NCBI GenBank assembly: GCA_934276635.1
Contig: CAKQTH010000002.1
Coordinates: forward strand, 11,822-75,821
Direction of reading: 5' to 3'
DNA: 64,000 nt
Source: an uncultured Alphaproteobacteria bacterium
Lineage (GTDB): Bacteria > Pseudomonadota > Alphaproteobacteria > RF32 > CAG-239
Part shown: positions 454-34,354 of the stretch, one piece after another
How positions within the stretch are numbered: the first letter of the stretch is position 1
How the letters are laid out: each line of letters opens with the position of its first letter
Translations under genes and position numbers: made by a program
The notes under the pieces: model-generated
Databases searched by the model: none
Seen by the model: only the letters and a program-made list of their open reading frames with translations
What the model was told of the DNA's origin: nothing

Positions 454-477
454 TCTTTCATAAAAAAGGATACGCAT

Positions 478-1038: not shown

Positions 1039-1050
1039 AGGCATATAGCG

Positions 1051-2319: not shown

Positions 2320-2332
2320 GGACAAAATTGTT

Positions 2333-3007: not shown

Positions 3008-3010
3008 CAC

Positions 3011-3042
3011 AAAAAACTCCGATTTTATATCGGAGTTTTTTA
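3011..3042. terminator. bidirectional rho-independent terminator between convergent genes
   Basis: Hairpin ACTCCGAT-tttat-ATCGGAGT flanked by an A-run and a T-run. It lies just 3' of both the 2333-3007 (+) and 3043-4809 (-) CDS. Confidence 0.6.
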
Positions 3043-4809: not shown

Positions 4810-4951
4810 AATTATCAGACCTTTTTCCATCTTTTTCACAATTCTTTTCTTTATTTTACACCGAAATCTTTTTTTTACAACATCTATCGTATATATGTGT
4901 AAATAATTGCTTTGTGTTGCAAATAAAGTATTTTTGTAATAATCTTTTGCC

Positions 4952-5787: not shown

Positions 5788-6555
5788 ATGATGAGCAAAA
5801 AATTTTTATTGGGAACCCTTTTGTCGGCAATGGCCGTTTTTACAATGAACGCAGCAAACGCCGCCGATGAAACTGAAGCTCCGAAAGTCAAAGAAATTCT
5901 GTTTAAGATTCACGACATAAAACCAAACAAAAACAAAGACGGGCTGGTAAAAAGCTGTAACTTTTTCGTAACTTTTTATAATCGTACGGACTTTGTTTTT
6001 GACGGCGCGACTCTTGATTTGTCATGGAAAGATGATACCGGAAACTATATTATAGAGCAAAATAAAAAGGCTCTTGCCGAATCTGATGACGAATATGCTG
6101 AAGATAACACAAAAAAGACTCCGGTTACCGAAGACAATTCCACCATCAAGTCAGAAGTTAAAAATGTCAGCACTTTCGTTGAAATGCCGGCATTAACTCC
6201 GTATACTCAGGGCACAGTTGCCGCTCGCCTGAATTCCGAAAAATGTTTTCTGCTGTTTGAAGAAACAAACTTCAGAGTTACATCTTGCAACCTGAAAAAT
6301 CAGGAAAATTCCGGCAACAGAACTCTTTCTAACTCAACCAACGAAAGAAGTGTTGAATCCTGCTCCAGAATGTTCAGATATGTATCGCCGAAAGATCCGG
6401 AATATTATCGCGAATTTAAGGCCGTATCAGTTGCCGAACAACAAAAATTGCTTCAAGATGCAACTCAGGAAGAAGTTGACAAGATTGAAACAAAATATCA
6501 GGGCGTTATCGCCAATATGGATTCGGCCAACAACATTTTGAGCAACATCCGCTAA
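5788..6555 (+). CDS. secreted hypothetical protein, 255 aa
   Basis: Signal peptide MMSKKFLLGTLLSAMAVFTMNAANA. Shares Cys-containing motifs with the next gene (CNFFVTFY...LDLSWKD vs CDISFVLF...LRVQWPK), so it is one of a paralog pair. Confidence 0.55.
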   Translation: MMSKKFLLGTLLSAMAVFTMNAANAADETEAPKVKEILFKIHDIKPNKNKDGLVKSCNFFVTFYNRTDFVFDGATLDLSWKDDTGNYIIEQNKKALAESDDEYAEDNTKKTPVTEDNSTIKSEVKNVSTFVEMPALTPYTQGTVAARLNSEKCFLLFEETNFRVTSCNLKNQENSGNRTLSNSTNERSVESCSRMFRYVSPKDPEYYREFKAVSVAEQQKLLQDATQEEVDKIETKYQGVIANMDSANNILSNIR

Positions 6556-8064: not shown

Positions 8065-9150
8065 ATGACGCAAAATAAAAAAATCGGCATTTTAACCAGC
8101 GGCGGCGACTGTGCTGGCCTTAATGCCGTAATTCGTTCGGTTGTTAATTGCGCAACTTCACTCGGCTGGACCGTATACGGAATTTGTGACGGGACAGAGG
8201 GTCTTACCGACAATCCGATGAGATACGAGATTTTAACGCCGCAAAACTTTTCGGATATGCCATGGCCGCGAGTCGCAGGTTCTTATTTGGGCTCGTTGAA
8301 CAAAGGCGTAAAAGTCGAAGACAAAGAAATCATCTCCAAAAAATTCGGCGAAGGAGCACGCAAGCTCGGCCTCAGCGCCGTAGTGGTTGTCGGCGGCGAC
8401 GGCAGTATGAACATTTTGAGCAACTATTGCAAAATTGCCGGCGTTAATATGATCGGTATTCCGAAGACTATGGATAACGACACTCCAATTACCGAATTGT
8501 CGGTCGGTTTTATAAGCTCTTTCCAAACCTGCACCGATGCGGTCGATTCGCTCAATAACACAGCTCGTTCGCACCATAGAGCGATGATTCTTGAAGTTAT
8601 GGGCCGCGATGCCGGACACCTTGCTATACGCACCGCTCTGGCCGGTTTTGCCGATGTATGCTTGGTTCCGGAAATTCCGTATACGATTGACGGAATTATC
8701 AACAAGCTCAAAGAAATTAAGGCTACCGGCCGTACACACTCAGTTATTGTTGTTTCCGAGGGCGTAAAGACCGAAACCGGCGAGCTTACGGATAGCGGTA
8801 CCACCAACCTTTTGGGTGAAAGAGTAAATGGAGGAATCGGCGATTATCTCACTCATGCGATTTCCGAAAGATACAAAGATTTTCAAATCAGATCAACCAA
8901 ACTCGGACATGTTCAAAGAGGTACCGATCCGATTGCCGAAGACCGCCTTTTGGCAACACTTTTCGGGGCAAAAGCCGTAGAATTGCTGCAAGAAGGACAA
9001 AGCAACTGCATGGTATCTTGGAACAACGGAAAAGTTATTTCCGTGCCGTTGGAAGAAGTTGTAAAAGTCGGCACCGCAACTTTGGATATTAACAGCGATT
9101 ATGTATCCGCAGCCAGAGCTTTGGGTATGTATATCGGAGATTTTAAATAA
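8065..9150 (+). CDS. pfkA: 6-phosphofructokinase, PFK-A family; ATP versus PPi specificity is ambiguous
   Basis: GGDGS motif (ATP-type Gly) together with GIPKTMDNDT (the Lys usually seen in PPi-PFK), plus MGRDAGHLA. 361 aa. Confidence 0.8.
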   Translation: MTQNKKIGILTSGGDCAGLNAVIRSVVNCATSLGWTVYGICDGTEGLTDNPMRYEILTPQNFSDMPWPRVAGSYLGSLNKGVKVEDKEIISKKFGEGARKLGLSAVVVVGGDGSMNILSNYCKIAGVNMIGIPKTMDNDTPITELSVGFISSFQTCTDAVDSLNNTARSHHRAMILEVMGRDAGHLAIRTALAGFADVCLVPEIPYTIDGIINKLKEIKATGRTHSVIVVSEGVKTETGELTDSGTTNLLGERVNGGIGDYLTHAISERYKDFQIRSTKLGHVQRGTDPIAEDRLLATLFGAKAVELLQEGQSNCMVSWNNGKVISVPLEEVVKVGTATLDINSDYVSAARALGMYIGDFK

Positions 9151-14223: not shown

Positions 14224-16122
14224 CTAATCTTGCAAGCCCATCAAACGATATTTTACGCGAACATCATAATCGCGGGCAAAATCATTCATAATGCGATTTG
14301 CCATATCCGCCGAATATGCGTATGCGGCATTGCTTTCAATCATTGCCATTTCATTGGCCGAAAGCTTCGGAGCCTCTGTTTTCGAGCTTGAGGCCTGAAC
14401 GATTGTCTGAGCCTTTCCGTTGGTCAAAACTTTCGGAGACATCAGCTGTTCATGAAACAGTTCCATTACATTTGCAACCGTCAAATCACCGGATTGTTCG
14501 CCGCGTGACAAAGGCTTTGTCTGAACATATTTCAAATTAAAGCGGGCTGCAATATCTTTAAGATTGTCACCGTTTTCCAAATCATGCATAACATCGTTTA
14601 CGATTTCCTGCGCAATAACGGCTCTTTCGTTTTCTGCCCACATTTTTTCAATCTGTCCGCGGACTTCATCAACCGTTTTCGGGCGGGAATCCTCGATATT
14701 CTTTACCGAGACAATAACAAATCCCTGCTCGGTTTCAAGCGCCTGCGAAACTTCGCCGATATTATACGAAAACATTGTGTCGATAAAATCAGGCGATTTT
14801 ACGATTTCATCGGTCGTTTTTGCGGTTTTTGCATATGTGCCGTCTTCTGCCAATCCTTTGACTTCATACAGTTTGTAGCCCATTTGTTTTGCCACATTTT
14901 CAAGGCTTTCGCCGGCACCGAATTTATCCTCAATATTTGCAACAAATGCATACATATTGTCATACAGTTTGTCTTCTTTGATTTTTGCAACAATATCACG
15001 GCGCGCCTGCTGCCGATCCATTTTGTGCATCGGAACGATTTTTGCGACCTTCACGATATGCCAGCCGTTTTCCGAGAATATCGGCTTAGAAAATCCGCCG
15101 GACGGAAGCGCAAAAACTTCATCTTTGAGCTCATCAATCAGCATATCTTTGCTGACCTTGCCGAAATCGGTATCTTCTTTGCTTTGCGAAAGCATATCTT
15201 TTGCAACCGCATAAAAATCTTTGCCGGATTTCAGCTCAAAATATGCCTTGTTTGCGGACTGTTCGTCATCAAACATCATCTGCAAAACCTCTCTGGTTTC
15301 CGGCGTTTCATAATCTGCAATATTATCCTGATAATATGTTTCAATCTCATCATCATCAACCGTAATGCTCTTCATCACATCATCGTTTGAAATAATGATA
15401 AAGTCGGCGTCTCTGCGTTCCGGTTCAACAAAATCGGGCGCAAAGTCGGAATAATATTGCTCAACTTCGTCATCAGAAATTTTGCGTTCAATCGGAAGTT
15501 TTTGTTCGTCGATTGTAACATATTCAAAAACTCTCTTTTGTCCGGTCATTTTTGCCAGATATTGACTCAAAATTTTCGGCGGATAAAAATTGTTCAAAGC
15601 AGCGCCGAGCAAAATCTGGCGTTCTATATCTCTTCTGATGGAGCGAATATATTCCGCATCACTCACACCCGATTTTGAAAGAAATGTTTTCATCAACTGT
15701 GGAGAATATTTTCCGTCAATCTGAAACTGCGGCAGCGAAAAAATAACACTTTGCACGATTGCGTCGCTGATGCTGATATCATACTTTTTTGCGGTCCTGT
15801 CCACAATCAGAGCCATAACTTCGCGGTTTGCAATTCTCTGAATCATTTCGGCGCGTACGCTGTCGTCCTCGTCAAAATCATCGCCAAAAAGGCCGCGCAC
15901 CGCGTTTTGCTCTCTTTGTAACAGATATTGAAATTCGCCTTGCGAAAGTTCCATATTATCAACCTTAATCACAGGGCGGTTTTTGCCCGCGCTGCTCAAA
16001 TATCCGGACACGCCGAACAATGACATAAAACTCAAAGCCGTCAAAGTTAAAATCGCTTTTGCCGCCCAACTCTTCTGAGCCTTTGCTAACATATTTATCA
16101 TTTTACAAACTTTCCACTTCAA
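14224..16122 (-). CDS. ppiD: periplasmic chaperone/peptidyl-prolyl isomerase PpiD (SurA-N plus parvulin domain)
   Basis: N-terminal membrane anchor, a SurA-like N-domain, and a PPIC rotamase motif (SGGFSKPIFSENGWHIVKV). 632 aa. The true start is probably an internal Met (MINM or MLAKAQ). Confidence 0.75.
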   Translation of the reverse strand: MKWKVCKMINMLAKAQKSWAAKAILTLTALSFMSLFGVSGYLSSAGKNRPVIKVDNMELSQGEFQYLLQREQNAVRGLFGDDFDEDDSVRAEMIQRIANREVMALIVDRTAKKYDISISDAIVQSVIFSLPQFQIDGKYSPQLMKTFLSKSGVSDAEYIRSIRRDIERQILLGAALNNFYPPKILSQYLAKMTGQKRVFEYVTIDEQKLPIERKISDDEVEQYYSDFAPDFVEPERRDADFIIISNDDVMKSITVDDDEIETYYQDNIADYETPETREVLQMMFDDEQSANKAYFELKSGKDFYAVAKDMLSQSKEDTDFGKVSKDMLIDELKDEVFALPSGGFSKPIFSENGWHIVKVAKIVPMHKMDRQQARRDIVAKIKEDKLYDNMYAFVANIEDKFGAGESLENVAKQMGYKLYEVKGLAEDGTYAKTAKTTDEIVKSPDFIDTMFSYNIGEVSQALETEQGFVIVSVKNIEDSRPKTVDEVRGQIEKMWAENERAVIAQEIVNDVMHDLENGDNLKDIAARFNLKYVQTKPLSRGEQSGDLTVANVMELFHEQLMSPKVLTNGKAQTIVQASSSKTEAPKLSANEMAMIESNAAYAYSADMANRIMNDFARDYDVRVKYRLMGLQD

Positions 16123-16254
16123 TTCGTTATAATAAAAAATTCTCCCTGCATTATAATTTGTTAAATAATTTATGCAATCTCTAAATATTGATGTTGAAAA
16201 GTTTTTTTCTATATGCTAAAAAGTGCGCATTACATTAACTTAGAGGAAACAATT

Positions 16255-17010
16255 ATGAGCAGAAAATTGTTGATTGCCGGAAACTGGAAAATGAACGGTC
16301 TTTCAAAAGACGGCGTTTTACTGGCAAAAAGCATTGCACAAGACAGCAAAAAAATCGCTGATTGCGACTTTTTGGTTTGTCCTCCGTTTACGCTTTTAAC
16401 ATTGATTAAAAAATCTTTGCGTGGTTCAAAGGTCGCTCTCGGCGCGCAAGATGTACATTTTGAGACCAAAGGCGCCCACACTGGGGATATCAGCCCGCTG
16501 ATGCTTAAAGACGCTGGCTGCAAATTTGTTATTGTCGGCCATTCCGAAAGAAGGGCCGATCATTTTGAAAGCAACGAACTTGTATGCAAAAAAGCAAAAG
16601 CAGCACAAGACGCGGGTTTGACCGCGATTGTCTGCATCGGCGAAACCGCAGCACAGAGAGAAGAAAGCAAAACCATTGAAGTTTGTACAACTCAGATTAT
16701 GAATTCCGTACCGGAAAAATCAACATACAGAAATATTGTGATTGCATATGAGCCGGTTTGGGCAATCGGTTCCGGAAAGACTCCGACTCCGGCCGAAGTT
16801 GAAGCCGTACACACTGCTGTCCGCAAGGCTTTGGCAAAAAGGCTCTCAAAGGCTCAGGCCGCAAAAATCCGCATTCTTTACGGCGGTTCCGTAAAGCCGA
16901 ACAACGCGAAAGACTTTTTGTCGCTTGAAGATGTTGACGGCGCGCTTGTCGGCGGTGCCAGCCTGAAAGCGGAAGATTTTCTTGCTATTGCGGCTAATGC
17001 TTGTTGTTAA
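16255..17010 (+). CDS. tpiA: triosephosphate isomerase
   Basis: AGNWKMNG, HSERR and GGASLK motifs. The start was moved to the ATG at 16255 (ribosome-binding site GAGGAAA); the upstream ORF-track extension is not conserved. Confidence 0.9.
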   Translation: MSRKLLIAGNWKMNGLSKDGVLLAKSIAQDSKKIADCDFLVCPPFTLLTLIKKSLRGSKVALGAQDVHFETKGAHTGDISPLMLKDAGCKFVIVGHSERRADHFESNELVCKKAKAAQDAGLTAIVCIGETAAQREESKTIEVCTTQIMNSVPEKSTYRNIVIAYEPVWAIGSGKTPTPAEVEAVHTAVRKALAKRLSKAQAAKIRILYGGSVKPNNAKDFLSLEDVDGALVGGASLKAEDFLAIAANACC

Positions 17011-18584: not shown

Positions 18585-21500
18585 ATGAAAAATTATGTTT
18601 TCAAGAGAATTCTGTTAACAACAAGCGTGGCTTGCGGCGCGCTTTTTGTCTCGGGGAATGTAAATGCGGCAACCGTGTCTACATGGGAAGAATTTAAGGC
18701 GGCGATTGCGGCCGGAGAAAGCGAGATTGTGCTTGCGGACAACCTGACGGCGACCGATATAATCACAATTACAAGTCCGCTCAGCATCAAGAGCGCGGAC
18801 GGACAGGTTTATAAAATTTCTGCGGCTGACGGGCTGAAATTTTCCGACTCCTTTATCAAATATACCGGCACATCGTCTTCTCCGCTGCTTAATTTGAGCA
18901 ATGTGCAGATTTCAAACATTTACCGTTTTAACAACACCAACGCCGGAACATACGCTGGCGGCGTAATCAACAACTCGGGCAAAATCGGCACGATTGACGG
19001 TGTGTTTTCTGACAACAAAATGGAATATAATCTAGACAGCGGTGGGCATACCAGAGTGTACGGCGGTATAATCTATAACAGTTCGTCCGGCTCCATAGAT
19101 AAAATCGGCGGCACATTTTCCAGCAACGACTTTGTCAGCCGCGTTCCGTGGAGCAGCCTCAACTCCTGGGGCGGCATAATCAGCAACCAGGGCACTATCA
19201 ACGAAATTGATGCAAACTTTATCGGAAACACTATGTCGACAGAAGATTATAGAGATAACTATACTTATGGCGGAATAATACAATCGAGCGGAAAAATCGG
19301 CACAATCAGAGGATTGTTCAAAGACAATATATTAAAATATTACAACTACACCAGCTACTGGAATGAGCAAAGGGGTAGTTTGATGTATATACAAAACGGG
19401 GTAGACAATATCTATGCCGACTTTATAAACAACTCCCTATATAATGAAGCCAATGACACTCTGACACGTGTCCACGCATCTTTAAACTTAGGTTTTATAA
19501 CCTTGCAATATAACAATATAAACGATTTTGTATCGTCTTTTGCTGAAAATAAGATGAATGTAACACTTACCGGAAACGGTAACGGATTTGTCAGAATAAA
19601 TGATATATACCAGACAACCGCAAAAAATATTGTGTTTGATATGCATAACAACAAAGTTGATGCAACAGCTGAAGGTTATATATATTATGAAAGCTTCAAC
19701 ATGGAAGGGGATTCAACTGATGTTACATTTAATAATTCCAAATTCTATGAAAATGAAACAACATTAGAATCCACCACAAAAAACATTTATGCCTCCGGCT
19801 TAATGACTGTATCCAGCAGCGGTGCGAAAGCAACATTTAACAATGTGCTGTTTAAGGACAATATTACTACCGCAGTCGGGAATTCGACCATCAGCGGCGG
19901 CGGTATCAAAAACAACGGTACATTAAACATTAACACCGCGCTTTTTGAAAACAACCTGATTAATTCCACAAATGCGGCAAACGGCGGAGCAATTTCCAAC
20001 GCAAAAACCGCCTCGATTATTGCTGATTTTGTCGGCAACAAAGCTTTCGCCGGAACGGATACTTCCACCGACACCAACGCCGTGGCCAGAGGTGGCGCGG
20101 TTTACAACTCCGCAGCCGGAACAATCGAAAAGCTCAGCGGCGTATTCTCTGACAACAAAGCGTATGCGATCGGCAAAACAAAATCTTCCGCTCTCGGCGG
20201 CGCGGTCTATAACAAAGGAAACCTCACTCTTTCTAATATCGTGATGGCCGACAACAACGCGGTTGCCGAAACCGGAACAGCCGACGAAACAAACAAGCCG
20301 GAAGCGCTCGGCGGTGCGGTTTATAACCTCGGAGATTTGCATATCAACGGTTCTGACGGCTTTGAAAACATTATCTCCGGCAACAAGGCGACTACCAAAA
20401 TCGGCGAGACCGAAAACACCGTGCAAAACGGAATATACACCGCCGCGGCCGACAAGAATGTATTTGTTAATATGACGACCGATTCAAAACTGTTCGTCTA
20501 TGACACCATCGACGGCGTTGAGGCCGGATACAACCTAAAATTTGACGGCGATGAAACCGGCCAGGCGTTTATTTATAACAATATTATCAACGCCAACATC
20601 TTTTTGGACAATATGTATCTGAACATTGCTCAAGAAGAATATCTCGACAATGCGAAAACTCTGACGCTTTCTTCCGGTCATTTGGATTTGATGAACGGAA
20701 AAGTCGGAACAATCCGCCCGGCAATGACTTTGACCGGCAATGTTCTGCTCTCCGTTGATGTCGATTTGTCCAACAAAATTATGGACCGCTTTGCCGATGG
20801 CGCAACCGCTACGGCCGGAAAACTCACAATCTCGCAGATAAATCTTCTTTCTGACGCTCTGCAAGATGTTGTGTATGTTCCGTTTGCCGAAGACAGCTGG
20901 CGCGACAAAGTTGATACCACCGTTACCGACGCCGTATATTCGAGCATCTATAAATATACGGTTTCGTACGAGGCTGACGGCGACGAAAACGGCGAAAATC
21001 GCGGCTCGTTCAAATTTGTCCGCACTTCGGTCATAAACCCGAATATTGAGGCGTCTTCAATCGCGGGAATCATCAACGGGGCAATGACGCAAGGCTTGAT
21101 TTATCAAAAAGCCCTGCAAGGCACCGATAACGCCGCACTCATCGGCCTCGGTATGTCTTCCGGCGATGAAAAGAGCGAATACGCTATCGGACAAATGTGG
21201 ATAAGACCGTTCTTGAGCAAAGAAAATGTTGATCTCAAATATTCCAACACCGTCCGTGCACAGGCTCGTGGTATGGTCTTTGGTATCGACAGCAACGACA
21301 TTCATCTTGACAACGGCGGAGAGCTCACAATCAGCCTCTATGGCGCAGTCGTCGACTCCGACCAAAAGTTTGAGCAAAACAAAGTTAAACAAACCGGAGG
21401 CAACCTCGGCGGATCTATCGTGGCAACATACGGCGACTTCTTTGCCGCAGTCACCGCCAATATCGGTATGAGCGATAATGAAGTCAACACCGTCACCGGC

Positions 21501-21974
21501 AAAGACAACTTTAATATCTATCTCGGCGGTGCGGCGTTCAAAACCGGCTACAATATCAGCCTTAACGAAAGCAAAGACCTGGTTATTCAGCCGAACTTCC
21601 TGACTTCGTACACCGCGCTGAAAACCGAAAATTATCACACTTCGGCCGGCGTTCATGTAAAGTCTGATATGCTGCATGTGGTAGAAATCGCTCCGGGCTT
21701 TAAGCTCATCAAAGAATACGACCACGGATTTAAGGCATATGCTACCATGACGGCGGTTTGGAATGTTATAATCGACGGCGAGGTTCGCGCAAACAATGTG
21801 GTTCTGCCTGACTTGAGCGTCAAACCATACATTGAATACGGATTCGGTTTTGAAAAAGACTGGAGCCAAGAAGAATGGAACCCGGTTGACCTCACAACAT
21901 TCGCGCAAATCGTCAGACGCGACGGCGGACGCGAAGGTTGGGCAGGAACCGCGGGTATCAAATGGAGCTTCTGA
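18585..21974 (+). CDS. autotransporter adhesin with Pmp-type (GGA[IV]xN / FxxN) passenger repeats and a C-terminal beta-barrel
   Basis: Signal peptide MKNYVFKRILLTTSVACGALFVSGNVNA. Repeated GGAIYN/GGAVYN...F.GN motifs. The C-terminus ends in GIKWSF (aromatic terminal residue). 1129 aa. Confidence 0.8.
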   Translation: MKNYVFKRILLTTSVACGALFVSGNVNAATVSTWEEFKAAIAAGESEIVLADNLTATDIITITSPLSIKSADGQVYKISAADGLKFSDSFIKYTGTSSSPLLNLSNVQISNIYRFNNTNAGTYAGGVINNSGKIGTIDGVFSDNKMEYNLDSGGHTRVYGGIIYNSSSGSIDKIGGTFSSNDFVSRVPWSSLNSWGGIISNQGTINEIDANFIGNTMSTEDYRDNYTYGGIIQSSGKIGTIRGLFKDNILKYYNYTSYWNEQRGSLMYIQNGVDNIYADFINNSLYNEANDTLTRVHASLNLGFITLQYNNINDFVSSFAENKMNVTLTGNGNGFVRINDIYQTTAKNIVFDMHNNKVDATAEGYIYYESFNMEGDSTDVTFNNSKFYENETTLESTTKNIYASGLMTVSSSGAKATFNNVLFKDNITTAVGNSTISGGGIKNNGTLNINTALFENNLINSTNAANGGAISNAKTASIIADFVGNKAFAGTDTSTDTNAVARGGAVYNSAAGTIEKLSGVFSDNKAYAIGKTKSSALGGAVYNKGNLTLSNIVMADNNAVAETGTADETNKPEALGGAVYNLGDLHINGSDGFENIISGNKATTKIGETENTVQNGIYTAAADKNVFVNMTTDSKLFVYDTIDGVEAGYNLKFDGDETGQAFIYNNIINANIFLDNMYLNIAQEEYLDNAKTLTLSSGHLDLMNGKVGTIRPAMTLTGNVLLSVDVDLSNKIMDRFADGATATAGKLTISQINLLSDALQDVVYVPFAEDSWRDKVDTTVTDAVYSSIYKYTVSYEADGDENGENRGSFKFVRTSVINPNIEASSIAGIINGAMTQGLIYQKALQGTDNAALIGLGMSSGDEKSEYAIGQMWIRPFLSKENVDLKYSNTVRAQARGMVFGIDSNDIHLDNGGELTISLYGAVVDSDQKFEQNKVKQTGGNLGGSIVATYGDFFAAVTANIGMSDNEVNTVTGKDNFNIYLGGAAFKTGYNISLNESKDLVIQPNFLTSYTALKTENYHTSAGVHVKSDMLHVVEIAPGFKLIKEYDHGFKAYATMTAVWNVIIDGEVRANNVVLPDLSVKPYIEYGFGFEKDWSQEEWNPVDLTTFAQIVRRDGGREGWAGTAGIKWSF

Positions 21975-25635: not shown

Positions 25636-25725
25636 AAAAATCAACTGCGGCATAATTAATATTAGACAAATATTTTTTTTGTGCTAATATTATATCAGTA
25701 TTGTTTATCCGCAAAGGAAAAAATT

Positions 25726-27015
25726 ATGAATCAGGAAAATCTCGAAGTTGTGAAAAAGTTGATGCGATTTGCCAAAGGAAAGCTCGTAAGCGCCTACAAT
25801 TCCGAGCTTTTTCAAAACTTTAAGGCCGAATACACCGGCGCAAAACTGGTTGAAAAGCTGCGTGCCGGAAAGGTCGGCTTTGTCAATGGCGTAAATCAGG
25901 CAAAAGTGGTTTTCCGTCCTCGCTATAAATTGGCTAAAGCGCGTGCTATTGCGGCCGGTCAGCGATTTTTGAGCTTTACGAAAGAAAATCTGCAAGCAGC
26001 GAAAAATTCTGATTTATACAAAGATTTTCAAAATTCAAAATTGGTGCAAAATTGCCGAAAATACGGGCGAAAAGCGGTGCTTGCGGCGTCGATTTCGGGC
26101 GTGTTGCTCGGCGGCGGATATATCTTTAAGAAAAATTCCAACAACAAGAGAACTGCCGAATACAGGCAGGAGATTGTCACTCATACCCCGACCGTGGACG
26201 AGGCCATCAAACATAACGAAAATCTGCTGTTTGCCACCATCGTTCATTCCGAAAATTTCAGCAATGAGCCATACCGCGATTCCGCCGGAGTTCCGACCAT
26301 CGGCTATGGCACGACCGTTTATCCGAACGGAAAAAGAGTTACGATGGGCGACAATCCGATAAGCCGCACTCTTTCGCCGGAAATGGTGCAAAAAAACAAC
26401 GGCAGCTACAAAGACGCGATGTATGACAAGGCGCAGGGATATGTTATATCTCACCTTGAAAAAGAGGTGTATCCGGCGCTCAGAGAGATTAAAGACTTCA
26501 ACAAGCTCACGCAAAATCAACAGGTTGCGCTCGGGCTGTTTGTTTATAATATCGGAAAGTCGGGCTTTGAAAACTCGTCTGTTTTGCAAGAGCTTAATGC
26601 CGGAAATACCTTAGCCGCGTTTGATAACATACTCAAATATAACAAAGTGAAAGGCAAACGGGGAGGATTGGTATTTTCGAGAGGCCTGCAAAAGCGCCGC
26701 GCGTACGAATATATGATTGCGCAGGGCAATGTTTCTTTGGCCGATGTGATAAAAATGCCGATCGGAAGCTTGTATGTCGACTCAGCTTATGAGCTTATGT
26801 ATGGTGGGAAAACAGCGAAAGACTTTGCCGGCGAAAACATTGTAAAGCCGGATTCTTCCAAAGCGGCAGGATATGTTACCGCGCTGATGAGCGCGGCCGG
26901 CAATAAGGTTGAGCATTGCGTCACCAGCGCCTGCCGGCAGGATATCAAAGCAAAAACGGCGTCCGATGCCCAAAAAATTGAAGTTGCGATGCTTGACCGC
27001 GGCAACAGGCGTTGA
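25726..27015 (+). CDS. inner-membrane-anchored glycoside hydrolase family 24 (phage-type lysozyme) protein
   Basis: About 125 aa cytoplasmic N-domain, one TM (AVLAASISGVLLGGGYIF), then a GH24 signature: HSENFSNEPYRDSAGVPTIGYGTT ... LTQNQQVALGLFVYNIGKSGF ... KRGGLVFSRGLQKRRAYEYM. Confidence 0.65.
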   Translation: MNQENLEVVKKLMRFAKGKLVSAYNSELFQNFKAEYTGAKLVEKLRAGKVGFVNGVNQAKVVFRPRYKLAKARAIAAGQRFLSFTKENLQAAKNSDLYKDFQNSKLVQNCRKYGRKAVLAASISGVLLGGGYIFKKNSNNKRTAEYRQEIVTHTPTVDEAIKHNENLLFATIVHSENFSNEPYRDSAGVPTIGYGTTVYPNGKRVTMGDNPISRTLSPEMVQKNNGSYKDAMYDKAQGYVISHLEKEVYPALREIKDFNKLTQNQQVALGLFVYNIGKSGFENSSVLQELNAGNTLAAFDNILKYNKVKGKRGGLVFSRGLQKRRAYEYMIAQGNVSLADVIKMPIGSLYVDSAYELMYGGKTAKDFAGENIVKPDSSKAAGYVTALMSAAGNKVEHCVTSACRQDIKAKTASDAQKIEVAMLDRGNRR

Positions 27016-27063
27016 CATTTCGACCTATTGATACTTATATAATCAGCAGAAAGGGATTTTGTG

Positions 27064-27318
27064 ATGAATTACAAGATTAGCGATTTTTTGATTTGGTTGT
27101 CGGTATTGGTCGCAATGGGGCTGATAATGGCGTTTTCGTTTTATTTGTTTATATTTTTGCTGCCGATAATTTTGCTCGGGATTGTGGGCTATATGTGTTT
27201 TTATCTGTATTGTTACTATGTTGCGAAGCATTCAAAACGCGGGTGCGGAGTAAAAAAATCTGAAAAAAGTGAAAAAATTATCGATGTTGAGTATGAAATA
27301 CTGGACAATAAAAAATAA
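27064..27318 (+). CDS. small two-TM membrane protein with a charged C-terminal tail (holin-like topology)
   Basis: 84 aa with two hydrophobic helices and a KHSKRGCGVKKSEKSEK tail. Lies directly after the lysozyme gene. Confidence 0.4.
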   Translation: MNYKISDFLIWLSVLVAMGLIMAFSFYLFIFLLPIILLGIVGYMCFYLYCYYVAKHSKRGCGVKKSEKSEKIIDVEYEILDNKK

Positions 27319-27404
27319 TTGTATATAATAGGCGATGTTACGTGATGAGAGCGGCAGGGTGATATCTGCCGTTCGCTTTTCAAATAACAGTATATTTCAA
27401 AAAC

Positions 27405-27446
27405 AAAAAAGCCGCGGATGGGGTTTCCCGCCGCGGCTTTTTTGCC
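27405..27446. terminator. bidirectional rho-independent terminator
   Basis: GC-rich hairpin GCCGCGG-atggggtttcc-CCGCGGC flanked by A6 and T6 runs, between the convergent 27064-27318 (+) and 27457-30864 (-) genes. Confidence 0.7.
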
Positions 27447-27456
27447 TTGACTAAGC

Positions 27457-30400
27457 CTACCATTCCTGAGTATATTTCAACTTAGGATTGTTCAAACGCT
27501 TTATATAATTAGGGTTACTTCTTTCTACTCCTTGTTCTACTGTTCTAAGGCTTGAATATTGATTATATTCTGTATCAACCATATTTTCATTGAAATAACT
27601 ATTACTGTTGTTTGTCAAACCATTTCTATCGAAATAACAATATACAGTCGCATAACCTTCTATACTCCATTTATCAACCGGGAACAAATTCCAATATATT
27701 TTGTTATCTCCTTGTCCAAGCTGCGGTGCTTCTGATCCACCCATTCCCGGTGTTTTGCTTGAATCAAACAAGTGGCTCCACAACACTGACGGATAGATAA
27801 ATCCCATATAGGTATTCCAACCTACAAATTGTCCGCCTGTTGAATATTCATTTCCTTTGTTATTATTTTCTCCTACATTTCCTCCCAAATTAAGCTTAAT
27901 TGCCGACTTCAACCATGTATTTTGTTGGAATATTCTCGGAATTGTTATAGAACCTCCTCCTGCCGGAATCTCTTTTATATCACCTTTTATCAATCCTTTA
28001 CTGGTCATATCATAAATCTTTTTATCTGGAGATTTGGCACTAGTGTTTCCATACATTGGTGTCGATTCGTTCAAATATAATCTATTACCTGCATCTGCAC
28101 TGCTATCTTCTACCAGAGTACCGATTTGAGCCATACGCCAGCCGGCAGGAGTCAAAGTAATAACTTTTGCATACCCCGGAGGACACTGCGGCGCCGGGAC
28201 AACTCCTAAAAATGCTGATGCAAATATAGCATTTACTTCCTTCACTGAATTGTTCATACTAGTTATGTCTTTTTCTTTAGGTGTCGTTCCCTCACCATAG
28301 CTGTTATCCGTAACATAAATACCTTTATTAATAAAGTCAGGCAAAATATCGCTCAAACGAGCTCCACCGCGGGAGGTCAGCTTGATATCGTGCATAACCG
28401 AAGTATATGCCGGATCTACCATATAGTGGTCATAACGCACACCATGACCTATTGTTTTGTCTTTATATACTTCATTTGGATTTCTCTCATAAGATACTCC
28501 GTTTTTTACATCCTGGACATTATCTACAACAAACCTGTCCGCTTTAACATACCCCGTCCCCGCATCAGCAGCATTTTTACCGGTTGAATCAGCAGCATTT
28601 TTACCGGTTGAAGAGGCTATCTTGTCTAAATCATCAAATTGCTGTACATCTATTGAACCTCTGCGGATATATACACCAGCTTTGATAGTATTATTTGCTC
28701 TATCTTGTACATTAAAATTATCATCACCTTTTGAAACATCATCTGAGCCGCTTACCGCCAACACATTATTTTGCAAGACAACTTTTCCGCCATATGCATT
28801 ATCACCAGACTTATGATGAACAGTTTGAATATGTATATATTGATCACCCTGCAATTGAATATTATTCGATGCATTAAATTGCAAGAAACTACCTTTATCA
28901 TATTTAGGAGTGACATCTATGCCATTATTTGCTTCTACACTATCTCTAGACAATGTTATTGTTCCATCTACTCCCTTTGTTGAATCTGACGGGGAAACAT
29001 TCATTACAATATCTCCACCCTTTACCGTTGTATTAACATTACCAGCAGTAACTTTGTTTTCTATGTTAGCATCAGAAACAGTCATAGCTATACCGCCGAC
29101 ATTCTTAACCGCTTTGCCATCGTCTTTATAAATTCGACCTATATCCAATTGAGAGAGTGGTTTTTTTACTGTTGATCCTGACGATGATTGTCCTAACGTC
29201 CTCATTTGAATAGTACCTTGTAGCAAGTCGCCTACACTTTCTTGGTCATTGCCATAACCTTTTATTTGTCTGGCTTCTTCAAGCTTTCCGCTGGACGCCA
29301 CATTTATATATGCATACTGCGCCGGTAATTCTCCCGCTTTACTTTCACCTTTTCTTTTATACCCGATTTTAACACCGTTTTTATCTACATCTAAATTCCA
29401 GGTTTCTTGGCTATTGTCTAGATCGTTTCTGCCTGCGCGCAATGATTTTGTATCAAAATTATCAGATTTCAAATATCCTGTTTCCAGCTGTGTCGCAATT
29501 GTTCTACCTGATAAAATATTTGCATTTTTTGCATTATTTGCGGCAACTATATATGATGTATAAGCAGCATTGCCATCACTATCTTTTTTTCCTATACGAG
29601 CATATTTGTCTTTAAATCCGGACCCATCGTATGTGGCTTTATTATCTTGTGTACCGACATAATTTTTTGGATTCATTGCCACAAGTTGATTTTTAATAGT
29701 CGTTCCATCTTCTTTGATACTAACCTTAGCATCGTCACTATTGCCAAAGAAACGAACAGCTCTTGCATCACCAGATTCTTCTGCGCCTATATTTGCAGAA
29801 ATTAAATTATTAGCATATGTCAAAGTATTACTATTTACGGCAAACTTATCCTTACTATCGCCGGTTCTGCTGAATGTCATGCCACTGTTATCAACAACCA
29901 GTCCGGCTCCGGCAACCGCTGTAGTATTTCCTTCTCCTGTAGTAGAGGTATACGGATTGTATTTAAATTCTGTTTCATCGACACTCAGTTTTTTCCGAGC
30001 GGCTTCCAATGATCCGCCTAACCAAGTATTTTTAACAGCGCCTTTACTGCTGACATACAAAGCATAACCTTCTGCATCGGCAGTTATATCATCATCTTGA
30101 TTATCTTTTTTATTTCCATCTCTTCCTTCTTGATGGCCAATCAAAAGTTGGCGAACGCCTTCGATGCTTTTTGCGCCATCATCACCCCACATATACAAGT
30201 TTGTCTGCATGGTGTTGTTTTCAACATCATCTTCAACGCGATATAAAAACTTGCTGGTATCAATCTGTGCCGACGCCCCGACCGCATTCTGCGATGCCAC
30301 AACAACCGAGTTATCAGAAATACCATTTAGCTCTATATCTGCAGGATCTGTCTGCCATGTACCCTGAACGCCGAGCACTTCACCGTTGTCAACAATTGCT

Positions 30401-30864
30401 CCGTTCCCGCCAATCATTGTCGCAATTCTTGATGTGCGTTGCGCCGTAATCTTGTCATCTGTAACATTTGCGCCAACATATCCGGTAATAACAGGGGCTT
30501 TCGGGTTATCCGTTTCTTTTACGACATAAGAAAATTTATATTCTTCCCCAAGCGGGCCATAAACTTTTTCCCCTTCAACAGCTCCTTCAGGCAAATATTT
30601 TGCCAATTTGTCCGCCGTTAAAGTGTATTTGCCATCATGTCCATCGCCTTTCAAGGTATCATAATTATCGCTGATATAGGCATCAAGCGCGGAGCTGAGC
30701 ATTCTCATATGGCTCGCCGCGTTGATATCTTGCAGCTCGGTCATTCTTTCCGCTGATTTTTTATAAACAACAGGAGTAACCAGCGAAATTAACCCCAACA
30801 TTGCTATCGCCTCAATCATCAAGCTACCAGCCTGATTTATCTTTTTCATATCAAAGTTTTTCAT
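27457..30864 (-). CDS. giant (1135 aa) protein with a type IV prepilin-type N-terminal cleavage/methylation signal; modular pilin-like adhesin candidate
   Basis: N-terminus MKNFDMKKINQAG|SLMIEAIAMLGLISLVTPVVY: a basic leader, Gly at -1, Glu at +5, a hydrophobic stretch of about 20 aa, then an amphipathic helix, as in pilin alpha-1. The rest is G/N/D/K/T-rich predicted beta-rich sequence containing a perfect 8-aa tandem repeat. Confidence 0.6.
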   Translation of the reverse strand: MKNFDMKKINQAGSLMIEAIAMLGLISLVTPVVYKKSAERMTELQDINAASHMRMLSSALDAYISDNYDTLKGDGHDGKYTLTADKLAKYLPEGAVEGEKVYGPLGEEYKFSYVVKETDNPKAPVITGYVGANVTDDKITAQRTSRIATMIGGNGAIVDNGEVLGVQGTWQTDPADIELNGISDNSVVVASQNAVGASAQIDTSKFLYRVEDDVENNTMQTNLYMWGDDGAKSIEGVRQLLIGHQEGRDGNKKDNQDDDITADAEGYALYVSSKGAVKNTWLGGSLEAARKKLSVDETEFKYNPYTSTTGEGNTTAVAGAGLVVDNSGMTFSRTGDSKDKFAVNSNTLTYANNLISANIGAEESGDARAVRFFGNSDDAKVSIKEDGTTIKNQLVAMNPKNYVGTQDNKATYDGSGFKDKYARIGKKDSDGNAAYTSYIVAANNAKNANILSGRTIATQLETGYLKSDNFDTKSLRAGRNDLDNSQETWNLDVDKNGVKIGYKRKGESKAGELPAQYAYINVASSGKLEEARQIKGYGNDQESVGDLLQGTIQMRTLGQSSSGSTVKKPLSQLDIGRIYKDDGKAVKNVGGIAMTVSDANIENKVTAGNVNTTVKGGDIVMNVSPSDSTKGVDGTITLSRDSVEANNGIDVTPKYDKGSFLQFNASNNIQLQGDQYIHIQTVHHKSGDNAYGGKVVLQNNVLAVSGSDDVSKGDDNFNVQDRANNTIKAGVYIRRGSIDVQQFDDLDKIASSTGKNAADSTGKNAADAGTGYVKADRFVVDNVQDVKNGVSYERNPNEVYKDKTIGHGVRYDHYMVDPAYTSVMHDIKLTSRGGARLSDILPDFINKGIYVTDNSYGEGTTPKEKDITSMNNSVKEVNAIFASAFLGVVPAPQCPPGYAKVITLTPAGWRMAQIGTLVEDSSADAGNRLYLNESTPMYGNTSAKSPDKKIYDMTSKGLIKGDIKEIPAGGGSITIPRIFQQNTWLKSAIKLNLGGNVGENNNKGNEYSTGGQFVGWNTYMGFIYPSVLWSHLFDSSKTPGMGGSEAPQLGQGDNKIYWNLFPVDKWSIEGYATVYCYFDRNGLTNNSNSYFNENMVDTEYNQYSSLRTVEQGVERSNPNYIKRLNNPKLKYTQEW
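28564..28611 (-). repeat. perfect 24-bp tandem duplication inside the giant pilin-like CDS (encodes STGKNAAD x2)
   Basis: atcagcagcatttttaccggttga occurs twice back to back, at 28564-28587 and 28588-28611. Confidence 0.9.
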
Positions 30865-30875
30865 CGCTTTTCTCC

Positions 30876-31745
30876 TTATCTTACAACACTCATAACAATT
30901 AAACAGTTACTGGAATCTTTGTGGCAGTTGCTATCAGACGCGAACAATCCATTTTGGGAAATCGCCTTCGGAATCGGCACAAGTTTGTCTTGAAACCCGC
31001 TGATAAAATACTCAAAATTGTTAACCATCAACGAGTTACCTGCTGAATCTTTATATAATTTTTCATCAATCACTTGATCTTTATATTTGCCGGCAGGAAC
31101 CACATACCCCATCTTTACGCCCTGAGTCGAAGTTTTTTTGATGGCTTTTATCAAATCTTCATTCGGAGCCTCTAAGGTAGAGCCTTCAGCTCCTCTGGCT
31201 CTCCAACGCACAGGAATCGGCATTGTGGTCACAACATACAGCCTTGCATAGTTTTTGTTCGGAATAGGGTTCCCGTTTTCATCAACTTTGATTGAACCGT
31301 CTTCATTTTTCTGAGTTGCTCCTTCAGAACCCTGACAAAGCTTTATATCCGCGGTCAATTCAAGCCGATTAAAAACCGTAGGGTCATGCATATCGCGGCT
31401 TTTGATGCAATATAGCTTTGAAACTTCGCCGACCTCAGGCCTAAATCCTTCCAAAACGGTTTCAGATAAAATTCCACCTTCTGGTTTACCTGTATCTGGA
31501 TTCTCTTTAGGATTAAGTTCCGCCTTTGTTATCGTCCCCAAATACATTGTCCCGTCTTGCCCATTTTTCGCCAGCTTGTATTGCTTCTTAGTATATTTTG
31601 TGACTGCCTCATGCTGAATCAAAAGCTTTGAAATGACAGCCTGCGCCTGCGGCGTTACATACAAATCGCGCGAATCGGATCGCACGCTCAAATTATATGA
31701 AAACAGCGCCACAACAAATGTTGCCAATATTACCCAGATATACAT
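30876..31745 (-). CDS. membrane-anchored 289-aa protein co-operonic with the giant pilin-like gene (possible minor pilin or assembly partner without a canonical leader)
   Basis: The ATG has a GGGGGAAGAG ribosome-binding site and in-frame stops upstream. N-terminal hydrophobic helix MYIWVILATFVVALFSY followed by a helical segment. The stop lies 9 nt before the GGAGA ribosome-binding site and ATG of the downstream gene. Confidence 0.5.
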   Translation of the reverse strand: MYIWVILATFVVALFSYNLSVRSDSRDLYVTPQAQAVISKLLIQHEAVTKYTKKQYKLAKNGQDGTMYLGTITKAELNPKENPDTGKPEGGILSETVLEGFRPEVGEVSKLYCIKSRDMHDPTVFNRLELTADIKLCQGSEGATQKNEDGSIKVDENGNPIPNKNYARLYVVTTMPIPVRWRARGAEGSTLEAPNEDLIKAIKKTSTQGVKMGYVVPAGKYKDQVIDEKLYKDSAGNSLMVNNFEYFISGFQDKLVPIPKAISQNGLFASDSNCHKDSSNCLIVMSVVR

Positions 31746-31911
31746 ACTCTTCCCCCTATTTGTAACCTATTACAAATCCTATCATATTTTTTTTGAGCTT
31801 GCAAATTTTTAAGCCGATTTCAGGCAAAAATTCACATTTCTGTAACAATGTACAAAATTTACTGTCTTTTATTGAAAAAATGGTTAAATATATGTGCAAA
31901 AGGATAATGTT

Positions 31912-33894
31912 ATGGATAAAAAATTTCAAATTGTCAGCCCGTTTGAACCCGCCGGAGACCAAATCGAGGCAATTGAAGAACTATCCGCCGGCGTCGAAAA
32001 AGGCCTGAAAAATCAGGTGTTGCTCGGCGTTACCGGCTCCGGCAAAACCTTTACCATGGCAAAAATTATCGAAAAGTGCCAAAGACCCGCGCTGATTATG
32101 GCTCCGAACAAAATTCTGGCCGCTCAGCTGTACGCCGAAATGAAAGAATTTTTCCCTTATAACAAGGTGGAATATTTTGTTTCGTATTACGACTATTATC
32201 AGCCGGAAGCCTATATTCCCAAAACCGACACATATATCGAAAAAGACTCGGCCATAAACGAACAAATCGATATGATGCGCCACGGGGCGACCCGCAATGT
32301 TTTGGAAGAAAACGATGTGATTATCGTTGCCTCGGTCTCGTGCATTTACGGTTTGGGCAGTATGGAATCGTATTCATCGATGACTTTGCCGCTAAAAGTT
32401 GGCGATTGCGTTGAAATTTCAGAGATTGCCAAAAGGCTCGCAGAACTGCAATACGCCCGCAACCAGCTGAATTTTGCCCGCTCGACTTTCCGCATCAACG
32501 GCGATGTTTTGGATATTTTTCCGGCGCACTATGAAGACCGAGCCTGGCGAATTTCCTTTTTTGGCGATGAAATTGAAAGCATTTGCGAATTTGACTCTCT
32601 GAGCGGAAAAAAGACCGCGGACTTGAACGAAGTCGTCGTTTATCCTGCCAATCACTATGTTACGCCGCGCCCTGCCCTTTCGCAGGCTATGGAACACATC
32701 AAGCAAGATTTGGACGAGCGGCTGACCTTTTTCAAAGAGCACGGAAAACTGCTCGAGGCTCAACGGCTTGAACAGCGCACCAGATTTGATTTAGAGATGA
32801 TGGAAGCGACCGGACATTGCAAAGGAATCGAAAATTATTCGCGATATCTGACCGGCCGCAGCGAGGGCGAACCTCCTCCGACTCTATTTGAATATTTTCC
32901 GAAAAATTCGCTTGTTTTTATTGATGAAAGCCATATTTCCATACCGCAAATCGGGGCGATGTACCGCGGCGACCAAAACCGCAAGTCCACGCTTTCGGAA
33001 TACGGATTCCGCCTGCCGTCGTGTCGCGACAACCGCCCGCTCAAGTTTGAAGAGTGGAACGCCATGCGCGGACAAACAATTTTTGTTTCGGCGACTCCGG
33101 GACCGTGGGAGATGGAACAAACCAAAGGCGAGTTTGTCGAACAGGTTATTCGTCCGACCGGACTGACCGACCCGCTTTGCATCGTTAAAGGCGCGCAAAA
33201 TCAGATTGACGACCTTATGGAAGAATGCCGAAAAACCATTGCCAAAGGCGAACGCGTTTTGGTAACGACACTGACAAAAAAAATGGCGGAAGACCTGACC
33301 GAATACCTGTCCGAAAACGGCATCAAAGTCCGCTATATGCACTCTGATATCGACACTTTGGAGCGCATTGAAATTATCCGCGACCTGCGCCTCGGTGTGT
33401 TTGATGTTTTGGTCGGAATCAACCTGTTGCGTGAGGGTTTGGATATTCCGGAATGCTCTCTTGTCGCAATTTTGGACGCCGACAAAGAGGGTTTTCTGCG
33501 GTCTACACGCTCGCTTATTCAGACTATCGGACGAGCCGCGCGAAACGCTCAAGGACGCGTGATTATGTATGCCGACAAAATCACCGATTCGATTGATGCC
33601 GCGCTCAAAGAAACCGCCCGCCGCCGAGAAAAGCAACAAAAATATAATATTGAGCACAATATCACGCCGCAAACCATCAAAAAGAGCATTTCTTCAACCC
33701 TAAAGGCGATGAGCGAAACCGATTTTGTTAAAGACGACGCACCGAAAGATGTTGATTTGCGCAATGTTGACAAGCAGATTAAGGACCTGACGAAAAAGAT
33801 GAAGGCCGCCGCTGAAGAGCTTGATTTTGAAAATGCCGTAAAATATCGCGACAAAATTAAAAAACTTGAAGAATTTCGCTTGAAAAATTCTTGA
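31912..33894 (+). CDS. uvrB: excinuclease ABC subunit B
   Basis: GVTGSGKTF Walker A, helicase motifs and a C-terminal UvrB/UvrC interaction helix. The start was moved to the ATG at 31912 ([17 protein letters not shown]), which has an AAGGA ribosome-binding site. Confidence 0.95.
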
Positions 33895-33913
33895 TAAACG
33901 GAGCAAAAAAACT

Positions 33914-34354
33914 ATGAAAATCACTATTATTGCAATCGGAAAATGCAAAAAAAATTCGCCGGAATACGCCTTGATTGAAGAATATAAAAAGCGCTCAAAT
34001 TGGGAAATTATCATCAAAGAAAAAGACAATTCAAACCAAAAAGACGAGGCGGAATTTTTGCAATCATCAATCCCGTCCGGCGCAAAAGTCGTGGTGCTTG
34101 ACGAACGCGGAGAAAACATAAAATCGCTTGATTTTGCCGCAAAACTCGAGGCGTGGGAAAATTCCGGCTGCCAAAATATCTGCTTTTTAATCGGCGGGGC
34201 GGACGGACATCTTGAATCCACCCGCAAACGCGCTGATTTGCTGCTTTCGTTCGGAAAAATGACCCTGCCGCATATGTTGATGCGTGCGGTTTTGAGCGAA
34301 CAAATTTATCGGGCGCAGACGATTATTCATCACCACCCGTACCACCGCGAATAA
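33914..34354 (+). CDS. rlmH: 23S rRNA (pseudouridine1915-N3)-methyltransferase RlmH
   Basis: 146 aa SPOUT-family protein (MKITIIAIGK...GGADGH). Confidence 0.8.
   Translation: MKITIIAIGKCKKNSPEYALIEEYKKRSNWEIIIKEKDNSNQKDEAEFLQSSIPSGAKVVVLDERGENIKSLDFAAKLEAWENSGCQNICFLIGGADGHLESTRKRADLLLSFGKMTLPHMLMRAVLSEQIYRAQTIIHHHPYHRE

Follow-up and report, generated by a model that had tools for sequence, protein, structure and literature searches.

What might a pilin-like protein of 1135 residues do, and with which partners, when it is encoded far from any recognizable pilus gene cluster? The question is raised by a two-gene operon within 64,000 nucleotides (nt) of DNA from an uncultured gut alphaproteobacterium of the CAG-239 lineage (contig CAKQTH010000002.1, positions 11,822 to 75,821; this whole stretch is called the window below). 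The original prediction, made from the letters alone, described a giant gene with a class III (prepilin peptidase) signal and a smaller partner gene, and both open reading frames (ORFs) lie where it had placed them, at 27457..30864 and 30876..31745 of the minus strand, with products of 1135 and 289 amino acids (aa), respectively. The operon, in our view, probably supplies two accessory subunits of a type IVb (R64/thin-pilus-like) pilus, the giant product being a PilV-type pilin that would be displayed on the filament, most probably at its tip. The features of the giant gene are as follows.

27457..30864, minus strand: giant pilin gene, 1135 aa with an ATG start, from the ORF map
30826..30864, minus strand: leader peptide, residues 1-13 (MKNFDMKKINQAG), with the predicted prepilin-peptidase cut after Gly13
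30763..30825, minus strand: predicted mature N-terminus SLMIE (Glu18 is position +5) and hydrophobic alpha1-N, residues 14-34
30145..30825, minus strand: PilV-like type IVb minor-pilin module, residues 14 to ~240, an alpha1 helix and a beta-sheet head
28705..30144, minus strand: Cys-free hypervariable beta region rich in G/N/D/S/T, residues 241-720
27460..28704, minus strand: conserved family-specific C-terminal domain, residues 721-1135, with the invariant pair C894/C1076
28315..28434, minus strand: residues 811-850 (YDHYMVDPAYTSVMHDIKLTSRGGARLSDILPDFINKGIY), the best-conserved motif of the giant protein outside alpha1
28564..28611, minus strand: perfect 24-nt tandem duplication, STGKNAAD twice, residues 752-767

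The N-terminus of the giant product, MKNFDMKKINQAG-SLMIE-AIAMLGLISLVTPVVYKK, comprises a basic leader, Gly13, Glu18 at +5, and an uncharged stretch; read on past the predicted cleavage point, MKNFDMKKINQAG is followed by SLMIEAIAMLGLISLVTPVVYKK. SLMIE, with its Glu at +5, leads into AIAMLGLISLVTPVVY, that is, about 20 hydrophobic residues (alpha1-N) and then an amphipathic alpha1-C. In the AlphaFold model, residues 2-66 form one helix, and a globular alpha-beta head of the pilin kind is packed on alpha1-C. Of 158 distinct family N-termini, 157 have Gly at -1 and 157 have Glu at +5, although overall identities among homologues fall to ~28%; E18, A21, M22, L23, L25, T30, P31, and Y34 are invariant in the family alignment. 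Family leaders are mostly 11 to 16 aa long, most commonly 12 or 13, and the +1 residue is Ser, Gly, or Thr. Nor is the signal a chance pattern: when ~1.9 Mb was searched in all six frames with a relaxed class III pattern, the matches were, apart from a handful of spurious antisense ORFs, almost exclusively the giants and bona fide small pilins. The class III signal proposed earlier thus stands, and a true start codon further downstream, which would have removed the G-SLMIE segment, is excluded because leader and motif are conserved in all relatives and a ribosome-binding site (RBS) precedes Met1. The word canonical, however, had to be given up: the N_methyl and TIGR02532 models give no match, and the signal is of type IVb style, with Ser, Thr, or Gly at +1 rather than Phe or Met, not the motif of type IVa pilins and type II secretion systems (T2SS). 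Type IVb pilins often miss the N_methyl model. Cleavage of the giant leader by a prepilin peptidase would be expected after Gly13.

The match to PilV, a known tip adhesin, extends past the hydrophobic helix and spans the head domain. Residues 6-275 aligned with PilV of plasmid NZ_CP022492 (BLASTP E 6e-12 over 285 columns), and the family profile matched PilV with an hhalign probability of 98% (E 2e-13). One homologue, P0077, passes the Pfam cutoff for Shufflon_N (the PilV constant region) over residues 107-258, and its first 267 residues match 2183 plasmid records, those listed all being annotated pilV (best E 2e-9). Based on this homology to PilV and on Shufflon_N in P0077, the N-terminal ~230 residues constitute a PilV-type type IVb minor-pilin module, in which the motifs YLP.G and R.SRIA.MIG.NG...G.QG.W recur. 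The earlier proposal of a giant modular pilin-like protein, probably a tip adhesin, gains from the homology. The family is PilV-related, yet it is not a PilV, since it lacks two defining PilV features, the shufflon and the plasmid pil operon. No inverted-repeat family was found in 27000-32000 and no recombinase among the neighbouring genes, and a shufflon or other DNA inversion at the giant gene was consequently rejected. The setting, in the window and in the loci examined, is chromosomal and of a housekeeping kind (uvrB, adhE, rpoD, dnaG, and fliLM), with no pilL-pilV operon of a plasmid or integrative and conjugative element (ICE).

A first search yielded 102 giant homologues of 944-1411 aa, all from metagenomes or metagenome-assembled genomes (MAGs), unnamed, and almost without Pfam matches. 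Alignment A1, of 55 family members, shows three parts: a conserved N-terminal ~240 residues, a hypervariable middle of ~480, and a conserved C-terminal ~415. Identity in the middle region is 29-66% even between close relatives that share 100% identity over their first 40 residues; residues 241-720 are presumed to be a stalk or specificity region. G/N/D/K/S/T residues abound in the body (G 10-11%, N 9%, D 7-9%), and the only cysteines of the protein, C894 and C1076, are both invariant across the family. The C-terminal region holds a nearly invariant 40-residue motif, YD.YMVNPAYTSVMHDIKLTTRGGARLSDILPDFINKGIY, in which almost all positions are invariant or at least 90% conserved; this motif (811-850) is poorly modelled, with a pLDDT <50 for 817-840. 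A phmmer search of 1.84 billion representatives with the C-terminal domain gave 378 matches, each a 50%-identity cluster; among the best 150, the domain forms the C-terminal end of proteins of 900-1470 aa, the shorter ones looking like fragments. The domain had no sequence match in Pfam, NCBIfam, or the PDB, and a PDB-sequence profile search with the giant family returned nothing. In a Foldseek search of the PDB with the whole 1135-aa model, limited by the low-confidence middle, nothing was significant, TcpB coming top at E 0.08; TcpB and CofB are among the top structural neighbours. Weak, nonsignificant likeness to phage spike or fibre proteins may suggest an elongated beta structure in the poorly modelled remainder. 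Internal repeats were rejected, as self-BLAST detected none; the 24-nt duplication, in the linker before the C-terminal domain, is a recent in-frame slippage event.

A separate observation concerns a 966-aa protein (P0123; L086 538-3438) with a Sec signal and BspA-type leucine-rich repeats fused in frame to the family C-terminal domain, which is 38% identical to window residues 729-1135; a PASTA-like ORF lies upstream. We did not rely on this protein, since real domain shuffling and chimeric metagenome assembly are both possible.

The partner gene and the surrounding elements of the operon are arranged as follows.

31746..31893, minus strand: intergenic region of 148 nt, common to the operon and the divergent uvrB; presumed promoter region
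30876..31745, minus strand: partner gene, 289 aa, ATG start
30865..30875, minus strand: gene junction of 11 nt, with GGAGA at 30871-30875
27414..27431, minus strand: terminator-like hairpin and T-run, 26 nt past the giant stop codon; a pattern match only

The 11-nt junction with its RBS, the intergenic region upstream, and the hairpin downstream give the pair the anatomy of a two-gene operon. The partner TAA, said earlier to lie 9 nt before the RBS of the giant gene, instead abuts it: the junction reads ...AGA TAA GGAGA AAAGCG ATG, with TAA at 30876-30878, GGAGA 6 nt before the giant ATG (30864), and a gap between the genes of 11 nt. A purine-rich RBS, GGGGGAAGAG, stands at 31747-31756, just 5' of the partner ATG. 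As the sole promoter-like match (31929-31901, 9/12 positions) was no better than shuffled sequence, the operon promoter is located from position alone. Hairpins with T-runs were no more numerous in the region than in shuffles; the one at 27414..27431 is presumed to end the operon. The order partner-giant is kept in 57 of 72 related loci, with gaps of -28 to +29 nt, and also in three distant loci.

The partner begins Met1-Tyr-Ile-Trp and continues with a hydrophobic helix (2-19), a helix at 23-60, and a beta-sheet domain. Its homologues, 218-334 aa long, start with an invariant M-Y-(I/L/V)-W and a hydrophobic helix, with neither a leader nor Glu5, and the partner of the window cannot have a leader because an in-frame stop is found 21 nt 5' of its ATG and no other start codon intervenes. 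From its two conserved Cys pairs, C113/C137 and C274/C281, the beta-sheet domain is likely to be periplasmic or extracellular. The membrane-anchored partner originally described is, as we would amend it, a leaderless and probably bitopic protein whose model has a pilin-like fold, the nearest solved structure being PilM of the R64-type pilus (3EOI). "Pilin-fold, PilM-like" is meant here in terms of structure and topology only, as a sequence-level link to PilM is absent: the hhalign probability was 0.1%, and none of 45 family members matched PilM (PF07419) in Pfam. Scans of Pfam and NCBIfam with the partner were empty, as was a PDB-sequence profile search. hhalign likewise gave nothing for the partner against PilV or for the giant protein against PilM; for the partner against the giant protein it gave a weak 58-column match (56% probability, E 1e-4) at the alpha1-C/YLPYGF region of the latter.

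The pair is widespread among related bacteria. In the GTDB one-genome-per-species data, 320 stretches encode a giant relative, which means at least ~160 genes, as the two search patterns can match one gene twice. The best 80 of the 320 are nearly all from gut, rumen, or faecal MAGs, with labels such as Alphaproteobacteria, "uncultured Azospirillum", Azospirillaceae, and Candidatus Scatocola. The best relative in this set is only 38% identical, and the species or genus of the window thus seems to be missing from it; metagenome protein collections hold one identical giant copy and copies at 58-77% identity. No relative was found in 2.9 million viral contigs, and a phage origin was rejected on that ground. 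The window itself is an alphaproteobacterial housekeeping stretch (RpoD, DnaG, TIM, PFK, AdhE, UvrB/C, YidC, and TrcR). Convergent with the giant gene are a gene for a 444-aa protein (25681-27015, plus strand) with an N-terminal region, a transmembrane (TM) segment, and a Phage_lysozyme domain (PF00959, E 1e-21), which also has a weak SpmX-like match, and, after it, one for an 85-aa two-TM protein (27061-27318, plus strand); R64-type pil operons include a lytic transglycosylase, with which the Phage_lysozyme protein may be compared. Further off, 18585-21974 (plus strand) encodes a protein of 1129 aa that has a Sec signal and no Pfam match. Its long repeats, rich in Gly, Asn, and Thr, are of a beta-helix kind, its C-terminus (...AGIKWSF) is typical of an outer-membrane barrel, and it looks like an autotransporter-like adhesin.

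In about 27 of 84 loci, a gene for a conserved Sec-signal protein of ~240 aa lies directly 3' of the giant gene (for example, L001 13206-13931); in L004 it lies on the other side (8076-8846). This downstream gene occurs in one sub-lineage and is absent from the window. By analogy, its product could be a secreted partner comparable to CofJ or TcpF. Such a neighbour is what would be expected if the giant protein served mainly to prime pilus assembly, and perhaps retraction, its C-terminal domain capturing a secreted protein, to be exported or displayed in a pilus-dependent way, rather than a host or bacterial receptor. TcpB and CofB, among the top structural neighbours, fit this alternative: TcpB initiates both assembly and retraction (PMC5207764), and CofB binds secreted CofJ and TcpB binds secreted TcpF (PMC6048534 and PMC9565799). 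Strong conservation of the C-terminal domain would likewise be expected of a protein-protein interface. We nevertheless consider a role mainly in initiation and docking unlikely, since the window lacks the downstream gene and the C-terminal domain has no sequence similarity or significant fold similarity to those of TcpB and CofB. A tip-displayed PilV-type pilin remains our preferred reading.

Such a pilin needs a pilus, and the window did not reveal one. Among its ORFs of at least 150 aa and the neighbouring 85-aa ORF, no PilB/PilC/PilD-type Pfam match was found; several of these ORFs gave no Pfam match at all, and a few, such as 16-463 and 33700-34227, were not identified. When the R64-type PilL-PilU proteins were compared by tblastn with the window and 84 related loci, only PilV matched. 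The strict Walker-A motif G.TGSGK[ST]T had no match, and a looser motif found only UvrB and other unrelated ATPases. The related contigs are more informative. In L077, 2.2 kb separate the giant gene from an ORF of 237 aa (15709-16422) that carries both A24 Asp motifs and adjoins groES/groEL; the plasmid matches listed for it are all annotated "A24 family peptidase". As a probe it recovered 14 metagenome loci, in most of which (L090-L094, L096, L097, L100, and L102), as in L077, the A24 peptidase gene adjoins groES-groEL, and in some of which a PilS-like pilin gene lies just past groEL. The A24 peptidase of L095, 76% identical to that of L077, accompanies a cluster with an ATPase of the T2SSE family (E 4e-45 to R64-type PilQ), a platform protein of the T2SSF family (E 2e-28 to PilR), and a PilT-like ATPase. 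Inside this cluster, 5884-6501 encodes 205 aa with a basic N-terminus (...NYNG before LALIISLLFALIAL) and no Glu5, which may be a further pilin-like or PilM-like component. Other loci recovered with the probe encode a pilin of 200-250 aa, with RSMIEMLGVLAIIGVL after the Gly, that matches PilS, BfpA, and TcpA; these small pilins of the clade have Arg at +1. In L014, L020, and L076 they are encoded no more than 10 kb from the giant gene (twice in L076, once 0.8 kb upstream of the partner), with partial copies at the edges of L040 and L015. Given the A24 peptidase, the PilS-like pilins, and the ATPase/platform cluster, the components of a dispersed type IVb pilus are present in the clade, as would presumably be true of the window organism itself. 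That the machinery is encoded elsewhere, as first proposed, gains support from the related contigs.

The original prediction had suggested a link to a secretin-like cluster at 1-4953, which we had to reject: 3043-4953 encodes a tetratricopeptide repeat (TPR) lipoprotein, and the ORFs at 478-3007 have no match to Secretin or type IV pilus families even at E<=10. The DNA just upstream of the window start, from the same organism (L087 1-10000), encodes an array of polytopic membrane proteins, five in number and all on one strand (716+, 440, 240, 527, and 732 aa). Their C-terminal tails are Gly/Ala-rich and none has a Pfam match, the 440-aa member having a weak NCBIfam match to VirB6 (PRK13852, E 0.014). 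After the array come a helix-turn-helix (HTH) regulator, a very acidic 569-aa protein, and the window ORFs 478-1038, 1051-2319 (a lipoprotein), and 2333-3007. Judged from these sequences, the array may be of the VirB6/TrbL-like (type IV secretion) kind rather than a secretin cluster.

Two further alternatives were weighed. One is that the giant protein belongs to another type IV filament, as a GspK-like T2SS pseudopilin or a Tad (type IVc) pseudopilin. Tad pili are common in Alphaproteobacteria, and the L077 peptidase is short (237 aa), like those of the TadV/PilU type. However, the sequence homology is specifically to R64-type PilV, the neighbouring small pilins (200-250 aa) match BfpA, TcpA, and PilS rather than Flp, and the L095 ATPase and platform proteins were best matched by R64-type PilQ and PilR among the queries tried. 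No T2SSK, TadE, Flp, or PilY1/PilC family matched the giant protein in Pfam or NCBIfam at E<=1. Membership in one of these other filaments thus seems very improbable.

The other is that the class III signal inserts the giant protein into the membrane, perhaps with cleavage, and that the protein is never polymerized, staying tethered in the inner membrane or envelope as a giant periplasmic or surface protein, with the partner as co-anchor. Neither the window nor the surroundings of the pair in most of the 84 loci hold a machinery gene, the pair sits among housekeeping genes, and the best-conserved part is the C-terminus rather than a variable tip, all of which would suit an anchor. There is also precedent for class III-signal proteins that form no filament (PMC3047682), and the archaeal sugar-binding proteins with such signals would be comparable. 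On the other hand, the whole PilV head domain is conserved, not merely the helix; in several genomes the pair has as neighbours PilS-like pilins whose signals are of the same style; and a related contig holds the ATPase/platform cluster. Finally, Glu+5 is invariant, and this residue of type IV pilins matters for subunit-subunit packing in filaments. An anchor without a filament is therefore, in our judgment, not a likely explanation.

We propose the following model for the PilV-type pilin that we favour. The giant protein would be a PilV-type minor pilin enlarged by a graft of ~900 residues, made as a prepilin and inserted in the inner membrane via the hydrophobic alpha1-N. An A24 prepilin peptidase encoded elsewhere would cut it after Gly13, and the pilin module with its Glu5 would then dock into a filament. 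Its most probable place there would be that of the first (tip) subunit, which PilV, TcpB, and CofB also take. The variable beta-rich stalk and the conserved, disulfide-bonded C-terminal domain would thereby be placed at the pilus tip, for adhesion or for capture of a ligand or partner. The co-translated, leaderless PilM-type partner, independent of the peptidase and without Glu5, would probably act together with the giant protein when the filament is primed or its tip complex forms. Modular pilins offer a precedent (PMC8179133), as do TcpB and CofB, both large type IVb minor pilins, which are tip-located and initiate assembly (PMC5207764 and PMC6048534), and priming or tip subunits of the PilV/TcpB/CofB type are cited also from PMC9045228.

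Several observations weigh against this model. The giant protein has no Pfam or NCBIfam match at E<=1, including to N_methyl (PF07963/TIGR02532) and Shufflon_N. The PilV used for comparison has no Glu5 and, as PilV is only ~440 aa long, nothing known corresponds to most of the giant protein; a further departure from PilV is that variability is central and the C-terminus conserved. A mature subunit of ~120 kDa would have to cross an outer-membrane channel. Peptidase, ATPase, platform, secretin, and ordinary pilin all went undetected in the 64-kb window; the evidence for machinery comes from relatives, L095 being tied to the clade solely via its peptidase.

A more far-reaching version of the model may be put forward tentatively, as a conceivable but doubtful extension. 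In it, the pair would be an unrecognized tip complex of a dispersed chromosomal type IVb pilus common to a gut/rumen lineage of Alphaproteobacteria, the partner being a naturally leaderless pilin that bypasses the peptidase and caps or primes the filament. The giant C-terminal domain, with its hyperconserved but unmodelled motif, would be a new ligand-binding or oligomerization module deciding host colonization or cell-cell contact, and diversifying selection would act on the hypervariable middle region.

The giant family leaves the accepted picture of type IV pilus function as it was. Modular pilins, which are known and widespread, are the accepted explanation of how simple type IV filaments gain functions, and the family is a very large variant of them rather than a new kind of system. 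It extends the explanation in size, to a pilin of ~120 kDa; in taxon, to the little-known, uncultured Alphaproteobacteria of gut and rumen; and in genome organization, to a presumed tip module in an isolated two-gene operon with the rest of the type IVb apparatus scattered. With no name and no Pfam model, the family is invisible to signature-based surveys. It offers a candidate colonization or contact factor for these bacteria, and it supplies a new conserved domain of ~415 aa and possibly a leaderless pilin-fold subunit.

Among known systems, the closest is PilV of R64/IncI-type thin pili (PF04917), including PilV2 of the Pseudomonas aeruginosa PAPI-1 element and PilV of Burkholderia Tfp7. 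The N-terminal ~230 residues are homologous; a short leader ending in Gly, the hydrophobic alpha1, and the motifs YLP.G and IG..GG...G..G.W are shared, as is the plan of a minor-pilin module bearing a pilus-exposed C-terminal extension. Association with a PilM-type protein is a further likeness, as pilV and pilM are adjacent in PAPI-1 and Tfp7; so, possibly, is a peptidase gene at a distance, these R64-type loci having no peptidase of their own (PMC3984277). In contrast, the giant protein is 2.6 times larger (1135 versus ~440 aa), lacks shufflon repeats and a recombinase, and reverses the PilV pattern in having its variability in the centre and its conservation at the C-terminus. Its gene stands in chromosomal housekeeping synteny outside any pil operon, not on a plasmid or ICE; Glu+5, absent in the PilV compared, is invariant in the giant family; and the giant protein of the window, unlike PilV, stays below the Pfam threshold for Shufflon_N. 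The partner resembles PilM (PF07419, 3EOI) in a hydrophobic helix that starts right from Met1 without a leader and in a probable periplasmic alpha-beta domain, but no sequence relationship was detected, and it is twice as long as PilM (~145 aa) and has two conserved disulfide pairs.

TcpB of Vibrio cholerae and CofB of enterotoxigenic Escherichia coli (ETEC) likewise carry a pilin module followed by beta-rich domains, have Glu5, and share the expected tip site and initiator role. They differ in having no sequence similarity to the giant protein, in size (390-520 versus 1135 aa), and in having genes that belong to the tcp and cof operons. For their C-terminal domains, folds and ligands (TcpF and CofJ) are known, whereas the giant C-terminal domain matches nothing. 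The modular pilins of Raynaud et al. 2021 (PMC8179133), for example PilB and PilC of Streptococcus sanguinis, follow the same plan of an N-terminal pilin carrier with a grafted module presented by the filament. The survey in that work used the N_methyl signature IPR012902, which does not match the giant family, and the extreme it singled out, by number of extra domains, was an 860-residue protein; the giant family spans ~900-1470 aa, with a graft that holds no known domain. Relative to such pilins, the family is set apart by its larger size, the lack of an N_methyl signature, a C-terminal domain of its own, a chromosomal place detached from pil genes, and a leaderless pilin-fold partner. Finally, the type IVa tip adhesins PilY1/PilC (~1000-1200 aa) are similar to the giant protein in size, in presumed place at the tip, and in modular build. 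PilY1/PilC, however, are carried by a minor-pilin complex without being pilins themselves, and are marked by a Sec signal and a C-terminal beta-propeller. In the giant family, unlike in PilY1/PilC, the adhesin-sized protein is itself the pilin.

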